Origin: Escherichia coli
GTDB lineage: Bacteria > Pseudomonadota > Gammaproteobacteria > Enterobacterales > Enterobacteriaceae
Direction: 5' to 3' (one strand)
DNA: 64,000 nt
Assembly (NCBI RefSeq): GCF_002854065.1
Contig: NZ_CP024147.1
A program made the position numbers and the translations under genes. Below the pieces are notes generated by a model. The model saw only the letters and a list, made by a program, of their open reading frames with translations, made no database searches and had not been told where the DNA came from. This document shows positions 1,908 to 63,846 of the stretch, piece after piece; position 1 is the first letter of the stretch; the number at the start of each line of letters is the position of its first letter.

Positions 1908-2945
1908 ATGTTTTCCGCATTGCGCCACCGTACCGCTGCCCTGGCGCTCGGCGTATGCTTTATTCTCCCCGTACACGCCTCGTCACCTAAACCTGGCGAT
2001 TTTGCTAATACCCAGGCACGACATATTGCTACTTTCTTTCCGGGACGCATGACCGGAACTCCTGCAGAAATGTTATCTGCCGATTATATTCGCCAACAGT
2101 TTCAGCAAATGGGTTATCGCAGTGATATTCGGACATTTAATAGTCGGTATATTTATACCGCCCGCGATAATCGCAAGAGCTGGCATAACGTGACGGGAAG
2201 TACGGTGATTGCCGCTCATGAAGGCAAAGCGCCGCAGCAGATCATCATTATGGCGCATCTGGATACTTACGCCCCGCTGAGCGATGCTGACGCCGATGCC
2301 AATCTCGGCGGGCTGACGTTACAAGGAATGGATGATAACGCCGCAGGTTTAGGTGTCATGCTGGAATTGGCAGAACGCCTGAAAAATACGCCTACCGAGT
2401 ATGGTATTCGATTTGTGGCGACCAGCGGCGAAGAGGAAGGGAAATTAGGCGCTGAGAATTTACTCAAGCGGATGAGTGACACCGAAAAGAAAAATACGCT
2501 GCTGGTGATTAATCTCGATAACTTAATTGTTGGCGATAAATTGTATTTCAACAGCGGTGTAAAAACCCCTGAAGCAGTAAGGAAATTAACGCGCGACAGG
2601 GCGCTGGCAATTGCGCGTAGTCATGGAATTGCCGCAACGACCAATCCGGGTTTGAATAAAAATTATCCGAAAGGCACTGGGTGTTGTAATGACGCAGAAA
2701 TATTCGACAAAGCGGGCATTGCTGTACTTTCGGTGGAAGCGACTAACTGGAATCTTGGGAATAAGGATGGTTATCAGCAACGCGCAAAAACAGCCGCATT
2801 CCCTGCGGGAAATAGCTGGCATGACGTAAGACTGGATAATCAACAGCATATTGATAAGGCACTTCCAGGAAGAATAGAACGTCGCTGCCGTGACGTTATG
2901 CGGATAATGCTACCACTGGTGAAGGAGCTGGCGAAGGCGTCTTGA
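1908..2945 (+). CDS. iap: Alkaline phosphatase isozyme conversion aminopeptidase (Iap), 345 aa
   Basis: ORF translation MFSALRHRTAALALGVCFILPVHASS...; signal peptide; M28-type peptidase. Confidence 0.92.
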   Translation: MFSALRHRTAALALGVCFILPVHASSPKPGDFANTQARHIATFFPGRMTGTPAEMLSADYIRQQFQQMGYRSDIRTFNSRYIYTARDNRKSWHNVTGSTVIAAHEGKAPQQIIIMAHLDTYAPLSDADADANLGGLTLQGMDDNAAGLGVMLELAERLKNTPTEYGIRFVATSGEEEGKLGAENLLKRMSDTEKKNTLLVINLDNLIVGDKLYFNSGVKTPEAVRKLTRDRALAIARSHGIAATTNPGLNKNYPKGTGCCNDAEIFDKAGIAVLSVEATNWNLGNKDGYQQRAKTAAFPAGNSWHDVRLDNQQHIDKALPGRIERRCRDVMRIMLPLVKELAKAS

Positions 2946-3070
2946 TGGGTTTGAAATGATGACTCCCGTGCCTGCAGGAAATCAATGCCACCTGAAACAG
3001 AGAATAAAAAAGGGTGCAGGAGGCCAAACCATCACAATTCAATACGCGGGGTTTTACCCCCGCGTGGTGG

Positions 3071-3223
3071 CTACTTCTTCGATTCGTAAGCGAGAACTGC
3101 CTTAAACTCCATACCACGCTCTCTGATACTCAACTCACATAACGAGTCGCCTACCATGAGCGTGAATCCCAGTACTGTACAACACAGTACTATGATTGCC
3201 ACAAGGGCATATTTTGTTAGCAT
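3071..3223 (-). CDS. hokX: Hok/Gef-family membrane toxin (type I toxin-antitoxin), 50 aa
   Basis: [50 protein letters not shown]; hydrophobic helix plus SLCE...AYES motif typical of Hok; GGAGG Shine-Dalgarno (rc of 3229-3233) 6 nt upstream of ATG 3221-3223. Confidence 0.75.
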
Positions 3224-3330
3224 GTCTTGCCTCCCTGCAAAGAAGAGACTAACATCCGAATTGCTACGTTCGAACGCGAGCCTCAGGTTGATAGAAATAT
3301 CGCCTGGGGCTTTTGTCCATCTGGAACCTC
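3224..3330 (+). ncRNA. sokX: Putative Sok-type antisense RNA opposite the hok mRNA leader (coordinates approximate)
   Basis: Expected from hok/sok locus architecture; exact ends not determinable from sequence alone. Confidence 0.2.
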
Positions 3331-3430
3331 GCGAATGCTTAACGCCAGACAGCCTCAAGCACCCGACGCCATTCTATACCTGATAATTCTTCCAGCGGCG
3401 TTCACGTTTAAAATCAGGAATGCTGCTCGC

Positions 3431-3469
3431 AAAATAAAAACGCCCCCATCATTTCTGACAGAGGCGTTT
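3431..3469 (-). terminator. Intrinsic terminator downstream of cysH (end of cysJIH operon)
   Basis: On minus strand: stem AAACGCC...GGCGUUU followed by U-rich run (A-run 3431-3439 on plus strand). Confidence 0.6.
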
Positions 3470-3486
3470 AATTTATCCGGCAATAT

Positions 3487-4221
3487 TTACCCTTCGTGTA
3501 ACCCACATTCCCTTTTTAAGCCAAAGAAACGCGTTTCTTCTTCCGCCATGCCGGGTTCCCATTTACGGGTTGTATGGGTATCGCCCACCGATAAATATCC
3601 TTCGTCCCATAATGGGTGATATTTCAGGCCATGTTTTTGCAGGTACTGATAAATAGTTCGGTTATCCCAGTCGATAATCGGCAGCACTTTAAATACGCCA
3701 CGCTGAATTGCCAGCACCGGTAAATTGGCGCGGCTGCCGGATTGTTCACGGCGCAGGCCAGCAAACCAGGTTTGCGCATTCAGTTCTTTTAGCGCCCGGT
3801 TCATCGGTTCGACTTTGTTGATGTCATTGTACTTTTCAATGCCTTCAACGCCCTGTTCCCACAGTTTTCCGTAGCGTGCTTCCTGCCAGGCTGCGCTTTC
3901 GGTAGCACGGTACACTTTCAGGTTGAGCTTGAGTTTGTCCGTTAACTCGTCAATAAAGCGGTAGGTTTCCGGGAACAAGTAACCGGTATCGGTGAGGATC
4001 ACTGGAATATCCGGGCGAATCTGATTCACCAGATGCAGGCTCACCGCCGCCTGAATGCCGAAGCTGGAAGAAAGCACATATTCACCGGGCAGATTATCCA
4101 GCGCCCAGGCTACGCGGCCTTCAGCGTCCAGTTTTTCCAGTTGGGCGTTAGTTTCCGCCAGCGCCAGAATGCGATCTACCTTCGGCAGTTCGTTCAGGGC
4201 GTTTAGATCGAGTTTGGACAT
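3487..4221 (-). CDS. cysH: Phosphoadenosine phosphosulfate (PAPS) reductase CysH, 244 aa
   Basis: Translation from [14 protein letters not shown]...; C-terminal ECGLH motif; ORF-track upstream extension judged non-coding. Confidence 0.93.
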
Positions 4222-15394: not shown

Positions 15395-16180
15395 TTAGCG
15401 CACTAAATAACCGCCATCAACTACTAATAAATGCCCGTTGACATAATTCGATGCCGGACTTGCGAGGAATACGGCTGCGCCCATTAAATCCTGAGTATCG
15501 CCCCAACGGTTTGCCGGAATATGATCAAGAACGCGCTGATTGGTTTCTGGATTACTACGTGTCGCCAGCGTAATATCTGTTGCATAATAGCCAGGGGCGA
15601 TACCATTTACCTGAATATTATATTGACCTAGTTCATCACAATAAGCTTTGGTGAACCCGGCAAGAGCATGTTTAGTGGCAGAATATGCAGGTGACCATTG
15701 TCCACCTAAGTAAGAGAATAATGAACAGATATTAATTATTTTACCGCTTTTCTGCGGGATCATAATTTTTGCCGCTTCATAGCTTAACTCGAATGCGGCG
15801 GTCAGGTTCACATCAATCATCGGGTCCCAGTCGGCACGACCGAAGTCCAGCACCTTATTCAGCTTACAAATACCGGCATTGTTAACCAGAATATCGACGG
15901 TACCGAAACGTTCGCAACAGGCGGCGATTATCTTCTGCGGCGCGCCTTCTGCGGTGATATCCACCTGCATGAAGTCCACCTCAACACCCTGTTTTTCAAT
16001 CATTTCCTTTGTTTCGCCGTTATCTTTGACGAAGCTAGGAATAAAGACATTTGCGCCTGCTTTGGCCAACGCCATGGCAAATGCCTGGCCTAAACCGCTA
16101 TTCCCGCCGGTAACAATTGCGGTTTTACCTTTCAGGGAGAAAAAATCCATTGAGAACGCATTGAGAGATTCGATTGACAT
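15395..16180 (-). CDS. ygcW: Short-chain dehydrogenase/reductase, 261 aa
   Basis: TGGNSGLGQAFA Rossmann motif; start at MSIESL with GGAG Shine-Dalgarno. Confidence 0.88.
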   Translation of the reverse strand: MSIESLNAFSMDFFSLKGKTAIVTGGNSGLGQAFAMALAKAGANVFIPSFVKDNGETKEMIEKQGVEVDFMQVDITAEGAPQKIIAACCERFGTVDILVNNAGICKLNKVLDFGRADWDPMIDVNLTAAFELSYEAAKIMIPQKSGKIINICSLFSYLGGQWSPAYSATKHALAGFTKAYCDELGQYNIQVNGIAPGYYATDITLATRSNPETNQRVLDHIPANRWGDTQDLMGAAVFLASPASNYVNGHLLVVDGGYLVR

Positions 16181-20520: not shown

Positions 20521-20692
20521 ATGAAAAAGGATTTAAACATGCTCAGGATATTCATCGTAATTATATTTATTTTCAATTTATCAGGCTGTGGATATAACGA
20601 TATTCAAACCTATGATGAGCAGGTTAACGCCTCCTGGTCTGAGGTATTAAATCAATATCAACGTCGCGCCGATCTTATTCCTAATCTTGTCG
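20521..20692 (+). pseudogene. lemA: LemA-family lipoprotein gene truncated after about 57 codons by IS1
   Basis: MKKDLNMLRIFIVIIFIFNLSGCGYNDIQTYDEQVNASWSEVLNQYQRRADLIPNLV then IS1 end; lipobox LSGC. Confidence 0.7.
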
Positions 20693-20747
20693 GGTGATGC
20701 TGCCAACTTACTGATTTAGTGTATGATGGTGTTTTTGAGGTGCTCCA

Positions 20748-21023
20748 GTGGCTTCTGTTTCTATCAGCTGTCCCTCCTGTTCAGCTACTGACGGGGTGGT
20801 GCGTAACGGCAAAAGCACTGCCGGACATCAGCGCTATCTCTGCTCTCACTGCCGTAAAACATGGCAACTGCAGTTCACTTACACCGCTTCTCAACCCGGT
20901 ACGCACCAGAAAATCATTGATATGGCCATGAATGGCGTTGGATGCCGGGCAACCGCCCGCATTATGGGCGTTGGCCTCAACACGATTTTCCGCCATTTAA
21001 AAAACTCAGGCCGCAGTCGGTAA
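20748..21023 (+). CDS. insA: IS1 InsA, 91 aa
   Basis: [43 protein letters not shown]... Confidence 0.95.
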
Positions 21024-21445
21024 CCTCGCGCATACAGCCGGGCAGTGACGTCATCGTCTGCGCGGAAATGGACGAACAGTGGGGATACGTCGGGGCTAAA
21101 TCGCGCCAGCGCTGGCTGTTTTACGCGTATGACAGGCTCCGGAAGACGGTTGTTGCGCACGTATTCGGTGAACGCACTATGGCGACGCTGGGGCGTCTTA
21201 TGAGCCTGCTGTCACCCTTTGACGTGGTGATATGGATGACGGATGGCTGGCCGCTGTATGAATCCCGCCTGAAGGGAAAGCTGCACGTAATCAGCAAGCG
21301 ATATACGCAGCGAATTGAGCGGCATAACCTGAATCTGAGGCAGCACCTGGCACGGCTGGGACGGAAGTCGCTGTCGTTCTCAAAATCGGTGGAGCTGCAT
21401 GACAAAGTCATCGGGCATTATCTGAACATAAAACACTATCAATAA
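20942..21445 (+). CDS. insB: IS1 InsB frame (expressed as InsAB' by -1 frameshift at the TTTAAAAAAC motif)
   Basis: 167-aa InsB translation; slippery A-run near 21000. Confidence 0.9.
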
Positions 21446-21462
21446 GTTGGAGTCATTACCTG

Positions 21463-34085: not shown

Positions 34086-34206
34086 AACCAATTAAATTCA
34101 ATGAATTAAAAAATGATGTAGACCTGATACATAGCACAACAGGCTATTTTGCGTTTAGCATCAGTCTCAAACCGGCTCCAGATAGAGCCGGTTTTGGTTT
34201 TCTGTC

Positions 34207-35547
34207 TTAACGCACCATGCACGGGCGCTTGTTATCGAACGTCCAGCCAGGAATCAGATACTGCATTCCCATCGCATCGTCACGCGCGCCAAGCCCGTGT
34301 TTCTGATACAGCTCATGGGCTTTCATCACTTGATCCATATCGATTTCTACACCCAGCCCCGGTTTTTCTGGCACCTGTACCAGCCCGCCTTTGATCTCAA
34401 ACGGTTCTTTGGTCAGGCGCTGATTACCTTCCTGCCAGATCCAGTGCGTATCAATAGCAGTAATTTTACCCGGTGCAGCGGCGGCAACATGGGTAAACAT
34501 CGCCAGGGAAATATCGAAGTGGTTGTTAGAGTGTGAACCCCAGGTCAGGCCAAATTCATGGCACATTTGCGCCACACGTACCGAACCTTGCATTGTCCAG
34601 AAATGCGGATCCGCCAGCGGGATATCAACGGATTGTAACGAGAGCGTATGGCCCATCTGCCGCCAGTCGGTGGCGATCATATTGGTTGCGGTTGGTAGAC
34701 CGGTCGCGCGACGGAACTCTGCCATCACTTCACGCCCGGAGAAACCTTGCTCCGCACCACACGGATCTTCTGCATAAGCCAGCGAACCTTTCAGGTATTT
34801 GCCGATTTTAATCGCTTCGTTCAGCGACCAGGCACCGTTAGGATCGAGCGTAATACGCGCCTGCGGGAAGCGTTGCGCCAGTGCCACAATAGACTCGGCC
34901 TCTTCTTCCCCGGCCAGTACACCGCCTTTCAGTTTGAAATCGTTGAAGCCATATTTTTCATACGCCGCTTCCGCCAGGCGCACCACCGCATCCGGCGTCA
35001 TCGCTTCTTCATGACGCAGGCGATACCAGTCGCATGAGTCATCCGGCTGGCTTTGATACGGCAGAGGTGTGGCTTTGCGATTACCGACGAAGAACAGATA
35101 ACCGAGCATTTCGACTTCGCTACGCTGTTGACCATCGCCCAGCAGGGATGCCACGTTAACCCCCAGATGCTGCCCCAGCAGATCCAGCATTGCCGCTTCT
35201 ATCCCGGTAACTACATGAATAGTGGTACGCAAATCAAATGTCTGCAAACCGCGCCCGCCGGCATCACGATCGGCAAAAGTATTACGCACCAGCGTCAGAA
35301 CGTTTTTGTATTCACCCAGCGTTTTACCCACTACCAGCGGAATTGCATCTTCCAGCGTTTTACGGATTTTCTCGCCGCCGGGAATTTCCCCTACGCCAGT
35401 GTGACCAGAATTATCTTTGATAATCACAATATTACGCGTGAAGAACGGTGCGTGTGCACCACTCAGATTCATCAGCATACTGTCATGGCCCGCCACCGGG
35501 ATGACCTGCATTTCAGTAACAACAGGCGTCGTAAATTGAGAACTCAT
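34207..35547 (-). CDS. gudD: Glucarate dehydratase, 446 aa
   Basis: Translation from [23 protein letters not shown]...; enolase-superfamily. Confidence 0.93.
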
Positions 35548-35567
35548 ATTTATGTCCTTTTTCAGAA

Positions 35568-36908
35568 TCAATGACGGCCGAAAACGGGACGTTTACGGTC
35601 AAAGGTCCAGCCGGGAATCAGGTACTGCATCGGGCCTGCGTCGTTACGCGCACCGCCAGGCAGACGTTTATAGGCCTCATGTGCCTTTTGTACCTGTTCC
35701 CAGTCCAGTTCCACGCCCAGACCGGGCGCATCAGGAACGGCAATTTTTCCGTTTTTAATCTCCAGCGGATTTTGGGTCAGGCGACAATCGCCCTCCTGCC
35801 AAATCCAGTGGGTATCGATAGCGGTAGGATTACCCGGTGCCGCCGCGCCCACATGGGTAAACATCGCCAGAGAGATATCGAAATGGTTGTTGGAATGGCA
35901 GCCCCAGGTCAGCCCCCAGTCGTCGCAAAGCTGCGCCACTCGGACTGCACCGGAAAGCGTCCAGAAGTGCGGATCGGCAAGTGGAATATCTACCGCATTG
36001 AGCATCACCGCATGACCCATTTCGCGCCAGTTGGTGGCGATCATATTAGTCGCGACGGGCAAGCCGGTCGCCCGCCGAAACTCCGCCATCACTTCACGTC
36101 CGGAGAAGCCCTGTTCTGCGCCGCATGGATCTTCGGCATAGGTAAGAACATCATTCAGTCCTTTGCACAGAGAAATGGCTTCATCAAGCAGCCATGCACC
36201 GTTGGGATCAACGGTAATCCGCGCATCCGGGAAGCGTTTCTTCAATGCACGAACAGTGTCGATTTCTTGCTCGCCAGGTAACACGCCGCCCTTAAGTTTG
36301 AAATCTTTAAAGCCGTAGCGATCCTGTGAGGCTTCCGCCAGACGCACAACGGCTTCGCTGTTCATCGCTTTCTGATGGCGCAACTGATACCACTCATGGT
36401 TGCCCGGCGTATTTTCCAGATAAGGAAGATCGGTTTTGGTCCGATCACCGATATAAAACAGATAACCGAGGACGGTAATAGCATCGCGTTGCTTGCCTGG
36501 CCCTAACAGTTCGCAGACCGGAACATTCAGCGCCTTACCTAGCAGGTCAAGCAAGGCGGCTTCCAGCGCCGCCACGGCGTTAACGCGCAATTCAAAGGTC
36601 CAGGCCCCTTTACCGAAGGTATCAAAATCGGCGGCCTGATTACCTTTATGCACCTGCTGAACCACTTTATTCAGGCGCGCAACTTCCTGGCCCAGCACCA
36701 TCGGAATAGCTTCGACCAGTGTTTGATAAATCACCTCTCCGCCCGGCGCTTCACCAATGCCGGTATGCCCGGCGTTATCGGTGAGTACCACGATATTGCG
36801 GGTGAAGTATGCGTTATGCGCACCACCAATATTGAGCAACATGCTGTCATGTCCGGCGACCGGAATGACTTTCATATCAGTAATAACAGGACTGGATTGT
36901 GTCGTCAT
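35568..36908 (-). CDS. gudX: Glucarate dehydratase-related protein (paralogue of GudD), 446 aa
   Basis: [31 protein letters not shown]...; clearly paralogous to adjacent gudD. Confidence 0.93.
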
Positions 36909-36909
36909 C

Positions 36910-38262
36910 TTATTGCCCCGCGACAGGTTTCAGCTCGATACGCTTGATATCGCCCACCAGCACCAGGTAGCTCAGTACCGCGATTAAGGCATGAACACCA
37001 ACATAAATCAGCGCCCCATTAAAGGAGCCAGTCGTGCCAACGATATAACCAATTGCGATTGGCGTGACGATGCCAGAAATGTTACCGAACATGTTGAACA
37101 GGCCACCGGAAAGACCGCTGATCTCTTTTGGCGCGGTATCTGCCATTACTGCCCAACCCAGCGCCCCAATGCCCTTACCGAAGAAGGCCAGCGCCATAAA
37201 GCCGATAATCATCCACTCAACGTTGACGTAGTTGCAGAACACCATCACCATCGACAGCAACATGCCCATTACGATCGGTGTTTTACGCGCAATGTTCAGC
37301 GATCCCGTGCGGCGCATCAGCCAGTCGGAAATAATCCCACCCAGCACACCACCGATAAAACCACAAACCGCCGGAACGGAAGCCACAAAGCCCGCTTTCA
37401 GAATCGACATCCCACGCGCCTGCACCAGATAAACCGGAAACCAGGTAATGAAAAAGTAAGTCAGGGCGTTGATACAGTACTGACCGATATAAACGCCGAT
37501 CATCATCCGTGACCCGAGCAGTTGTTTGATCTGCCCCCACTTCACGCTGAACGGCACTTTAACTTTGGTGTTTTGCTGATCCATATTGATCAGCGCGCCA
37601 CCCGCGGCGATGTACTCCAGCTCTTTCTGATTTACCCCCGGATGTTGATTTGGCTCGTGGATGACTTTCAACCAGATAAAGCTGATGACAATCCCCAGAC
37701 CGCCCATAAAGAAGAAGACGTGTGACCAGCCCACTTCATGCGTCAGCCAGCCCATAATCGGCGCGAAGATCACCGTTGCGAAGTATTGAGCGGAGTTAAA
37801 AATCGACACCGCCGTTCCCCTTTCCTGCGCCGGAAACCAGGCCGCAACAATGCGACTGTTGCCGGGGAAAGATGGCGCTTCAGCAAGCCCGACCAGGAAG
37901 CGCAGAGTAAACAGGGCAACGATAATGCCGAATCCACTAAAGATATCGACGAAGCCTTGCAGCAAGGTAAACATCGACCAGATAAAGATCGACCAGAAGT
38001 AGACGCGTTTTGAACCAAAACGATCCAGCAACCAACCACCAGGGATCTGCCCGATAACATAAGCCCATGAGAAGGCAGAGAACACATAGCCCATTCCCAC
38101 GGGATCAAGGCCGATATCTTTGGCCATTTCCGAACCGGCAATAGAAAGCGTAGCGCGGTCGCCGTAGTTGAAGGATGTGACGATAAACAACATCACCACT
38201 ATCCAGTAACGAGCATTCGTGCGTTTTTCCACACTGCTCGCAGCCTGACTTAAAGAACTCAT
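36910..38262 (-). CDS. gudP: MFS glucarate/galactarate transporter, 450 aa
   Basis: ORF translation, multi-TM. Confidence 0.92.
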
Positions 38263-38696
38263 TGTTGCACTCCTGAAAATTCGCGTTAACCACGCTCACT
38301 CTGGACTGCGACATCGCCAGGAAATCAGAGGTGACGTAGGGTGTTTTTTGCCGTTTTTATAGGTCGTTCGCCGAATACGGCGCGTGTTTATATCTGGCAA
38401 TAGCAGTATAAAAAGCGCGCCATAGCGGCTCACCGTGCAACAACACAACATTAATGCGTTCAATGAGGCCCGATTTTGGCATTAGCCCTGGACGGTGGAA
38501 TCCACTTCACGGAAATGAAAACAAGAACAAGAAAGGAAGGGTTAAAACGAAGAAATAAAGAAGAGTATGAAATGGATCGCTTGACTCCAGGCAAACGCCA
38601 GTAAAAATCCGCGCTATGAAGCAGTTTTTACTGGCATTTGCCTGAAAAGATTCGATTCAGCACCGCTAAAACGACATTTACCGCTCGCTGAACATA

Positions 38697-40317: not shown

Positions 40318-40686
40318 AATAAAAAAAGGGAGCACTGTATTCACAGTGCTCCCGGTTCGTTTCGCAGCATTCCAGCTACATTTGTTGCTCCCTGCTCATC
40401 CTTGACAACTTTTCCTCTGGCCTTGCGGCCAATCGTTCATCCTGAACTATTGCTTCCTGCTCACACCACCCCGATGTGATACTTCATCCTGAAGTGTCCC
40501 TGGCCTTCCTGACCCACCGAATCATCCTGACCGGTTCTCATTCTCCATCCTGGAGGTGTCCTTTAACGCGTCCTGCGTCATCCTCTTCGCTTCATCCAGA
40601 AGCCTTTCCCTGAAACACCATCCTGGTGTGTCCTTCAGAAGTGTCATCATCCTGATGTTCACTTCGTTGTCTGACTCCCTGTCGAC
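40318..40686 (-). ncRNA. csrB: CsrB small RNA (CsrA-sequestering), about 369 nt
   Basis: Minus strand starts GUCGACAGGGAGUCAGACAACG..., carries well over a dozen CAGGA(U/A)G-type GGA motifs (seen as CATCCTG on plus strand), ends in hairpin plus U-run at 40321-40358. Confidence 0.92.
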
Positions 40687-58857: not shown

Positions 58858-59063
58858 ACTTCCTGAGCCGGAACGAAAAGTTTTATCGGAATGCGTGTTC
58901 TGGTGAACTTTTGGCTTACGGTTGTGATGTTGTGTTGTTGTGTTTGCAATTGGTCTGCGATTCAGACCATGGTAGCAAAGCTACCTTTTTTCACTTCCTG
59001 TACATTTACCCTGTCTGTCCATAGTGATTAATGTAGCACCGCCTAATTGCGGTGCTTTTTTTT
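58858..59063 (+). ncRNA. gcvB: GcvB small RNA, about 206 nt
   Basis: ACTTCCTGAGCCGGAACGAAAAGTTTTATCGGAATGCGTGTTCTGGTGAACTTTTGG... with GU-rich TGTTGTGTTGTTGTGTTTG tract and terminator GCACCGCCTAATTGCGGTGC plus T8; divergent from gcvA. Confidence 0.92.
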
Positions 59064-62056: not shown

Positions 62057-62156
62057 TGCCTGATGCGCTACGCTTATCAGGCCTACATAACTCCTGCAAT
62101 ATTTTGGATTTGCATGATTTGTAGGCCGGATAAGGCGTTCACGCCGCATCCGGCAT
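62057..62156. repeat. Pair of REP elements (BIME-like) between tcdA and mltA
   Basis: GCCTGATGCGCTACGCTTATCAGGCCTACA and TGTAGGCCGGATAAGGCGTTCACGCCGCATCCGGCA. Confidence 0.75.
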
Positions 62157-63548: not shown

Positions 63549-63625
<77 letters not shown>

Positions 63626-63658
63626 ATTAAAATTTGATGAAGTAAAGCAGTACGGTGA

Positions 63659-63735
<77 letters not shown>

Positions 63736-63769
63736 ATCAAAATTTGATGAAGTAAAAGCAGTACGGTGA

Positions 63770-63846
<77 letters not shown>

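Follow-up and report, generated by a model that had tools for sequence, protein, structure and literature searches.

The paralogous genes gudX and gudD of the Escherichia coli gudP-gudX-gudD operon: a 20-nt spacer, an invariant active site, and a likely distinct role of GudX

Positions 34207-36908 of the window, i.e., of the whole analyzed stretch of 64,000 nucleotides, contain gudX and gudD, with which the gudP-gudX-gudD operon of E. coli ends; the operon is encoded on the minus strand (Table 1). The entire window is E. coli chromosome and extends from cysD/iap through the metZWV tRNA genes. The initial annotation had placed two open reading frames of 446 aa at these outer coordinates; both were found exactly there, both on the minus strand, and the two peptides it had quoted are contained in the respective proteins. 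The gene boundaries of gudD, gudX, and gudP in RefSeq, which holds the identical E. coli sequence, are the same as those found here. A query with the 4.4-kb gudP-gudX-gudD region found a match in all but one of 5426 complete E. coli genomes (5425), and two of these matches were 100% identical.

Table 1. Genes and sequence elements of the gudP-gudX-gudD operon and its flanks (positions of the window).
Feature	Coordinates	Strand	Basis
gudP, MFS glucarate/galactarate transporter, 450 aa, operon gene 1	36910..38262	-	ORF, TIGR00893 (538.6 bits), RefSeq
gudX (ygcY), glucarate dehydratase-related protein GlucDRP, 446 aa, ATG..TGA	35568..36908	-	ORF, RefSeq, PDB match
gudD, D-glucarate dehydratase, 446 aa, ATG..TAA	34207..35547	-	ORF, RefSeq, TIGR03247
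gudX-gudD spacer TTCTGAAAAAGGACATAAAT, 20 nt, non-coding	35548..35567	-	sequence reading
Shine-Dalgarno motif AAGGA, 7 nt before the gudD ATG (35547)	35555..35559	-	sequence reading
gudP-gudX junction TAA-G-ATG, 1-nt gap	36906..36912	-	sequence reading
10-bp G+C-rich hairpin between the convergent genes barA and gudD	34169..34194	.	pattern scan only
gudP upstream region with blocks conserved among Enterobacteriaceae	38296..38520	-	alignment of 11 species
Conserved block TTTCATTTCCGTGAAG upstream of gudP	38505-38520	-	alignment of 11 species
Conserved block AATGTTGTG-N5-TGCACGGTGAG upstream of gudP	38429-38452	-	alignment of 11 species
TATACT, -10-like element upstream of gudP	38405-38414	-	alignment of 11 species
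Leader hairpin upstream of gudP	38296-38334	-	alignment, hairpin pair counts

The operon is flanked by two regions with potential control elements. Downstream of gudD, the hairpin that separates it from barA has a T-tract on the plus strand and none on the gudD strand; it is terminator-like on the plus strand, and we infer from its sequence that it may function as such. The conserved region upstream of gudP presumably represents a CdaR-dependent operon promoter together with its leader. A promoter scan of the gud strand upstream of gudP revealed no sigma-70 consensus, which is expected for an activator-dependent promoter. In Salmonella, the promoter PgudTYD is under the control of CdaR (PMC11077982).

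The junction between gudX and gudD differs from its first description. The initial annotation had proposed that the gudX stop overlaps the gudD start by about 21 nt, and had concluded that the pair has been kept with translational coupling. The coding strand reads ...GGC CGT CAT TGA ttctgaaaaaggacataaat ATG AGT TCT, i.e., a spacer of 20 nt lies between the stop codon of gudX (35570..35568) and the start codon of gudD. The same value is obtained by subtraction, because 2 x 1341 nt taken from the 2702 nt of the pair gives +20. It seems that the size of the junction had been estimated about right and that its sign was wrong, a gap having been taken for an overlap. The only overlap arises from the mechanical ORF call, which starts gudD at TTG 35571 and thereby extends 4 nt into the end of gudX. 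This start was rejected. It would add an extension of eight codons that lacks a ribosome-binding site and that is not conserved, as only 14 of 38 other species have a spacer whose length is divisible by three, and 30 of the 38 carry an in-frame stop in the 60 nt that precede the gudD ATG. Furthermore, the ATG is the start used in RefSeq, and the GudD chains in the PDB, which are 446 residues long, line up residue by residue with the protein that begins at this ATG.

Each of the 39 species with a tandem arrangement has a positive spacer, with lengths of 8-87 nt and a median of 20 nt (+10 in Pantoea sp. Mb-10), and an SD-like motif of the AGGA type was found in 36 of 38 tandem loci in addition to that of the window itself. 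The RNA fold of the junction was examined for a structure that could mask the ribosome-binding site of gudD, and nothing unusual was found there (MFE -27.6 versus a shuffle mean of -27.8, z = 0.06). A translation of gudD by termination-reinitiation inside a gudX/gudD overlap is therefore extremely improbable, given the spacer, the AAGGA motif ahead of the ATG, the mostly present in-frame stops, and the ordinary RNA fold. The argument for translational coupling that had been built on the overlap falls, because the two genes do not overlap, and gudD has its own conserved ribosome-binding site. A loose coupling across the 20-nt spacer is possible; nothing specific points to it. When a coupled pair is defined by a downstream start that lies inside the upstream coding sequence or directly adjoins it (ATGA, TAATG, or a longer overlap), the tightly abutted junction of this operon is that between gudP and gudX, which fits the definition, while that between gudX and gudD does not. 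In other Enterobacteriaceae the gap between gudP and gudX is -4, -1, or +2 nt.

That the two dehydratase-like proteins are paralogs, as had been noticed at first sight, was confirmed by a pairwise comparison (63% identity, 282/448; 590 bits, E = 0). Both have the architecture of the enolase superfamily, with an N-terminal capping domain and a (beta/alpha)7-beta barrel. In the comparison with Pfam, GudX matched MR_MLE_C with 173 bits and MR_MLE_N with 35 bits, and GudD matched MR_MLE_C with 164 bits. The NCBIfam equivalog TIGR03247 describes glucarate dehydratase over the whole protein and has a curated cutoff of 828.7 bits; GudD scores above it (898.7 bits), whereas GudX scores below it (748.6 bits). 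This is the reason that GudX carries only the name "enolase C-terminal domain-like protein" in RefSeq.

GudD belongs to the same sequence family as PDB entry 1EC7. An AlphaFold model of GudX (pLDDT 83, pTM 0.88) could be superimposed on GlucD structures with a TM value of 0.93 (Foldseek). The pair of GlucD and GlucDRP was a target of the Enzyme Function Initiative, and structures were released in 2012-2013: according to their titles, 4GYP (2012) is a heterotetrameric complex of GlucD and GlucDRP from E. coli K-12 MG1655, and 4IL0 (2013) is GlucDRP alone from the same strain. A literature search for an open paper on the function of GudX, or for a description of the GudD/GudX heterotetramer, yielded none. 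Hubbard et al. are said to have cloned and purified YgcY/GlucDRP in 1998, and the kinetics proposed in the initial annotation were reportedly largely done at that time. GudD was reported to dehydrate D-glucarate and L-idarate efficiently to 5-keto-4-deoxyglucarate, while GlucDRP was reportedly strongly impaired in the dehydration as well as the epimerization of both compounds, and its substrate is said to have been listed as unknown. The existence of the gudX/gudD pair, its naming, its structure, and the status of GudX as a protein with an unknown real substrate were all already known.

The distribution of the two genes was analyzed in a scan of 100,044 species-representative genomes, which yielded 80 loci. 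The order gudP-gudX-gudD is kept in Enterobacteriaceae, Erwiniaceae, Pectobacteriaceae, Yersiniaceae, and Budviciaceae, and also in Orbaceae, Pasteurellaceae, and one MAG. Only one gene, which is of the GudD type, is present in Pseudomonas, Bradyrhizobium, Bacillus, Paenibacillus, and others. These lone proteins are 70-77% identical to GudD of E. coli and only about 65% to GudX. A neighbor-joining tree revealed a clean bipartition of 44 GudX-type and 78 GudD-type proteins. This bipartition, together with the lone GudD-type relatives, indicates that the duplication is old and that GudX is the diverged copy. In 39 of the 44 cases the GudX-type gene is located directly upstream of gudD on the same strand. 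As judged from the tree and the gene neighborhoods, GudX thus represents a separate clade that has been passed on jointly with gudD in Enterobacterales, Orbaceae, and Pasteurellaceae. A few loci deviate from this arrangement. In a strain of Pantoea stewartii, gudX and gudD have collapsed into a single chimeric gene. In Halomonas eurihalina, a GudX-type gene is flanked by two kdgD genes, and in Paludibacterium yongneupense, the order is glycerate kinase-gudP-gudX; both loci are devoid of a gudD gene within 5 kb.

The dS between the two E. coli paralogs is saturated (1.9), which shows that the duplicate has survived for a very long time. Purifying selection on gudX is as strong as on gudD, with pairwise dN/dS values versus 13 relatives of 0.017-0.049 for gudX and 0.011-0.049 for gudD. 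The GudX orthologs are slightly more diverged than the GudD orthologs in 33 of 38 species, with mean identities to the E. coli proteins of 86.3% versus 88.6% (Wilcoxon P = 7e-7). A stretch of 97% identity between the two paralogs (residues 259-288) raised the possibility of gene conversion. This was rejected, because the third-codon-position identity is 0.38 in this stretch and 0.51 overall (among identical codons of gudX versus gudD).

For the analysis of the active site 18 positions were chosen, i.e., N27, H32, T103, Y150, F152, K205, K207, D235, N237, E260, N289, D313, H339, S340, N341, D366, H368, and R422. Four of them, N27, H32, T103, and R422, hold the distal carboxylate of glucarate, and R422 comes from the neighboring subunit. 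We take the positions beyond K205, K207, N237, and H339 to be active-site residues on the basis of the structures of Gulick et al. All 18 positions were found to be invariant in 44 of 44 GudX proteins and in at least 77 of 78 GudD proteins. The KxK motif (K205, K207), the His339-Asp313 dyad, and the Mg2+ ligands D235/E260/N289 are present in both proteins of the window and without exception in the 44 GudX-type and the 78 GudD-type proteins. K205, K207, N237, and H339 are the residues of the Catalytic Site Atlas for 1ECQ (PMC4922564).

The differences between the two clades are located elsewhere. Nineteen positions are fixed differently between GudX and GudD, and 13 of the 19 are clustered in residues 28-114 (binomial P = 5e-6), namely, L28I, S29G, P34A, G78A, R88H, a Gly-Asn insertion (two positions), R94F, Q102W, D105E, I110V, H111N, and T114A. 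In the same segment GudX has a deletion of two residues. The remaining six are Q140K, T286V, D294N, S322A, S338C, which is next to the catalytic His339, and G418P, which is near R422. The protein of the window carries the signature of the GudX clade (IGAHFWENAVNACP), which in GudX numbering comprises I28, G29, H87, the G89-N90 insertion, F95, W103, E106, N110, A113, N293, A321, C337, and P417. In the structural model, residues 21-30 and 91-110 of GudX are flexible segments of low confidence, which is consistent with a putative function of both as lids of the active site. In the enolase superfamily, specificity is set by the capping loops.

Taken together, the dN/dS values, the invariant active site, and the presence in 5425 of 5426 genomes make a distinct role of GudX likely, and GudX is most probably a functional and non-redundant partner of GudD. 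The initial annotation had suggested a distinct role of the second enzyme; this idea withstands the analysis with respect to non-redundancy (dN/dS 0.017-0.049, 18/18 sites), but not with respect to its argument from overlap and coupling. Our preferred explanation, which we regard as reasonably probable, is that GudX is a subunit of a mixed GudD/GudX tetramer, that it acts in the same hexarate pathway, and that it has a complete but re-tuned active site. GudX and GudD would be made together from one operon mRNA, GudX would join GudD in mixed tetramers serving the hexarate pathway, and it would bring along an active site that is complete and re-tuned by the changed lid loops. It would be neither a second independent glucarate dehydratase nor a dead scaffold. 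It counts against the explanation that a purely structural partner would not need a fully invariant active site of its own. The crystallization of GudX with GudD as a heterotetramer (4GYP) agrees with this explanation, but it is no proof that such a complex forms or matters in vivo. Two results from Salmonella link GudX to the pathway: in S. Paratyphi A, gudT, ygcY, and gudD have been degraded together, and in S. Typhi, an apparently intact ygcY fails to rescue a defective GudD on glucarate (PMC11077982). The latter evidence is indirect, because YgcY of S. Typhi might itself be impaired.

Two other explanations were weighed against the mixed tetramer. GudX could be a stand-alone enolase-superfamily dehydratase or epimerase for another acid sugar, i.e., a stereoisomer of hexarate or a related diacid, which feeds the same 5-keto-4-deoxyglucarate pathway, and the heterotetramer would then be an incidental mixing of very similar subunits. 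This is a tenable second choice, to which we give a clearly smaller chance. The strong purifying selection and the invariance of the checked catalytic, metal, and ligand positions in 44 of 44 proteins speak for it, as do the clustering of the clade-specific changes in the capping loops that set specificity and the score of GudX below the glucarate dehydratase cutoff. The solo GudX-type genes, which lie beside kdgD in Halomonas or beside glycerate kinase and gudP in Paludibacterium and lack a gudD neighbor within 5 kb, fit better to an independently active enzyme. However, the residues N27, H32, T103, and R422 for the distal carboxylate are unchanged, and thus any new substrate must be very similar to glucarate. 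In addition, no substrate of GudX has been reported, although it was a target of the Enzyme Function Initiative with structures from 2012-2013, and in 39 of 44 cases the gene lies next to gudD, a stricter linkage than a shared pathway alone would need. A related proposal, to which we attach a similarly modest probability, is that the GudX clade acts on a different glucarate-like diacid, either as a competent enzyme or as a catalytic subunit within the mixed tetramer, and is not a weak glucarate dehydratase. In that case, the 13 fixed changes in the lid loops (20s and 90-114) would determine its specificity or gating.

At the other extreme, GudX might be a redundant or decaying duplicate of GudD that lacks a role of its own. 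Its low activity on glucarate and idarate, reportedly found by Hubbard et al. in 1998, would be in line with this, and so would its routine omission from descriptions of the pathway and the Pantoea stewartii strain with a single chimeric gene. But the selection data (dN/dS of about 0.02-0.05, equal to that of gudD) effectively refute it. Three orders of Gammaproteobacteria have retained the clade, its active site does not vary, 5425 of the 5426 complete genomes of E. coli contain the locus, and a saturated dS of the paralogs speaks for very long survival, so that redundancy or decay is highly improbable.

GudX is missing from pathway diagrams though it is conserved as strongly as gudD, and a gene that has kept its place beside gudD over hundreds of millions of years, and whose active site is intact, represents a small but real gap in a textbook pathway. 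The gap concerning the reaction of GudX has been recognized since 1998. The observation with which the initial annotation began adds nothing new to this, and the overlap, its single specific claim about structure, was wrong; the residual question is the old one, namely, what GlucDRP does. The use of glucarate and galactarate via the gud/gar genes aids the expansion of E. coli and Salmonella in a gut that is inflamed or has been treated with antibiotics (PMC11775122, PMC3877842, PMC11077982). If GudX acted on a different diacid, the gudPXD operon would catabolize a wider set of oxidized sugars in the inflamed gut than is usually drawn.

Comparison with characterized proteins places GudX of the window within a known group. 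It is about 99% identical to GlucDRP of E. coli K-12 (4IL0; chains C/D of 4GYP) and therefore is the same protein. The four differences between the two (E58D, E66D, D142E, and L165V) represent strain-level variation, and the position in the operon is the same. With GlucD/GudD (E. coli, 1EC7-1ECQ; P. putida, 1BQG) GudX shares the fold, the length, and 63% of the residues, and the KxK motif, the His-Asp dyad, the metal ligands, and the substrate-contacting residues are identical. In contrast to GlucD/GudD, it has the 19 fixed clade-specific differences, which are mostly located in the 20s and 90-114 capping loops. Two of these differences have already been addressed by others: 3PWG (S29G/P34A) and 3PWI (P34A) are engineered loop mutants of E. 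coli GlucD and not natural proteins, and the mutated positions correspond to two GudD-to-GudX substitutions found here, which shows that the difference in the 20s loop has been probed before. A counterpart from another family is the GlucDRP-type protein of Actinobacillus succinogenes (3N6H/3N6J/3PFR), which bears the signature of the GudX clade, including LPxGAR, and matches GudX with 792 bits; GudD of E. coli matches GudX with only 647 bits. As a member from the Pasteurellaceae that is 72-75% identical to GudX, it shows that the GudX clade is old.

A single nucleotide separates the gudP stop codon from the gudX start codon (TAA-G-ATG, window 36906..36912, minus strand), and at this junction other Enterobacteriaceae (loci L002-L044) show an overlap of 4 nt or 1 nt, or else a 2-nt gap. 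From this spacing, it is gudX, not gudD, that looks translationally coupled to its upstream neighbor. Upstream of gudP, comparison of 11 Enterobacteriaceae defined several conserved blocks (window 38296..38520, minus strand; see the table). The -10-like element lies about 14 nt downstream of the AATGTTGTG-N5-TGCACGGTGAG block, and the stem of the leader hairpin comprises 9 bp, a few of which are preserved by double changes. These blocks may correspond to the CdaR site and promoter, together with a leader element in the mRNA.

Coordinates of conserved blocks upstream of gudP and of further features of the window
Feature	Position	Strand	Remark
Block TTTCATTTCCGTGAAG	38505-38520	-	conserved in 11 Enterobacteriaceae
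Block AATGTTGTG-N5-TGCACGGTGAG	38429-38452	-	conserved in 11 Enterobacteriaceae
-10-like element TATACT	38405-38414	-	conserved in 11 Enterobacteriaceae
Leader hairpin TCAyTCTGA...TCAGArTGA	38296-38334	-	conserved in 11 Enterobacteriaceae
iap	1908..2945
sok RNA of hok/sok-type locus	3208..3364
CsrB	40318..40677	-	384 bits
GcvB	58858..59063	+	199 bits
ES036/CssrF sRNA	62079..62121	-
tRNA-Met (CAT)	63549..63846	+	three identical genes in tandem

Pantoea stewartii subsp. stewartii CCUG 26359 (locus L033, 4991..6338) contains one chimeric gene in place of the gudX/gudD pair. Its N-terminal approximately 290 residues are of the GudX type and its C-terminus is of the GudD type (signature IGAHFWENAV|DSSG), and compared to its Pantoea relatives 1367 nt are deleted, which is one repeat unit. 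Unequal crossing-over of the two tandem paralogs, gudX and gudD, gave rise to this gene. GudX-clade genes without a gudD inside 5 kb were found in Halomonas eurihalina (L041, 5001..6338), where kdgD, encoding 5-dehydro-4-deoxyglucarate dehydratase, immediately precedes the gene and a second kdgD follows 3.3 kb downstream, and in Paludibacterium yongneupense (L030, 5001..6332), with the gene order glycerate kinase-gudP-gudX-type. Lucifera butyrica has two GudD-type genes in tandem with a 10-nt gap downstream of a gudP homolog (L062, 3511..6326). The two copies exhibit 68% and 76% identity to E. coli GudD, some lid positions are changed in the upstream copy (LCPRRHNN versus LSPRRQDH), and this tandem apparently arose independently.

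The GudX and GudD proteins of 'Escherichia coli strain SCPM-O-B-8794' (L028, 3613..7702) are 99% identical to those of the window, and the dS values of the two genes are about 0.39-0.44. This greatly exceeds the typical divergence within E. coli and points either to a divergent lineage of Escherichia or to an allele that has undergone recombination.

In the window, iap is directly followed by a hok/sok-type locus and then by cysH (1908..3487), a position at which K-12 carries its type I-E CRISPR-Cas locus. Neither a repeat array nor cas genes are present between iap and cysH, and thus this strain appears to lack that locus. The sites at about 20690..21460 and at 16027..16035 show IS1-related differences from CUWW06, a comparison strain with an identical gud region. 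In the window, an IS1 copy is located within a LemA-family (ygcG-like) gene, and about 1.9 kb adjoining it are absent compared to CUWW06 (its locus L082, 19533-21460). In CUWW06, another IS1, which is lacking in the window, splits an SDR oxidoreductase gene. CsrB, GcvB, ES036/CssrF, and the tRNA-Met genes are already known RNA genes.

Engineered E. coli mutants of the D-glucarate dehydratase GlucD (GudD) are represented by the PDB entries 3PWG (S29G/P34A) and 3PWI (P34A). The exchanges S29G and P34A are exactly two of the clade-specific substitutions from GudD to GudX that the alignment revealed.
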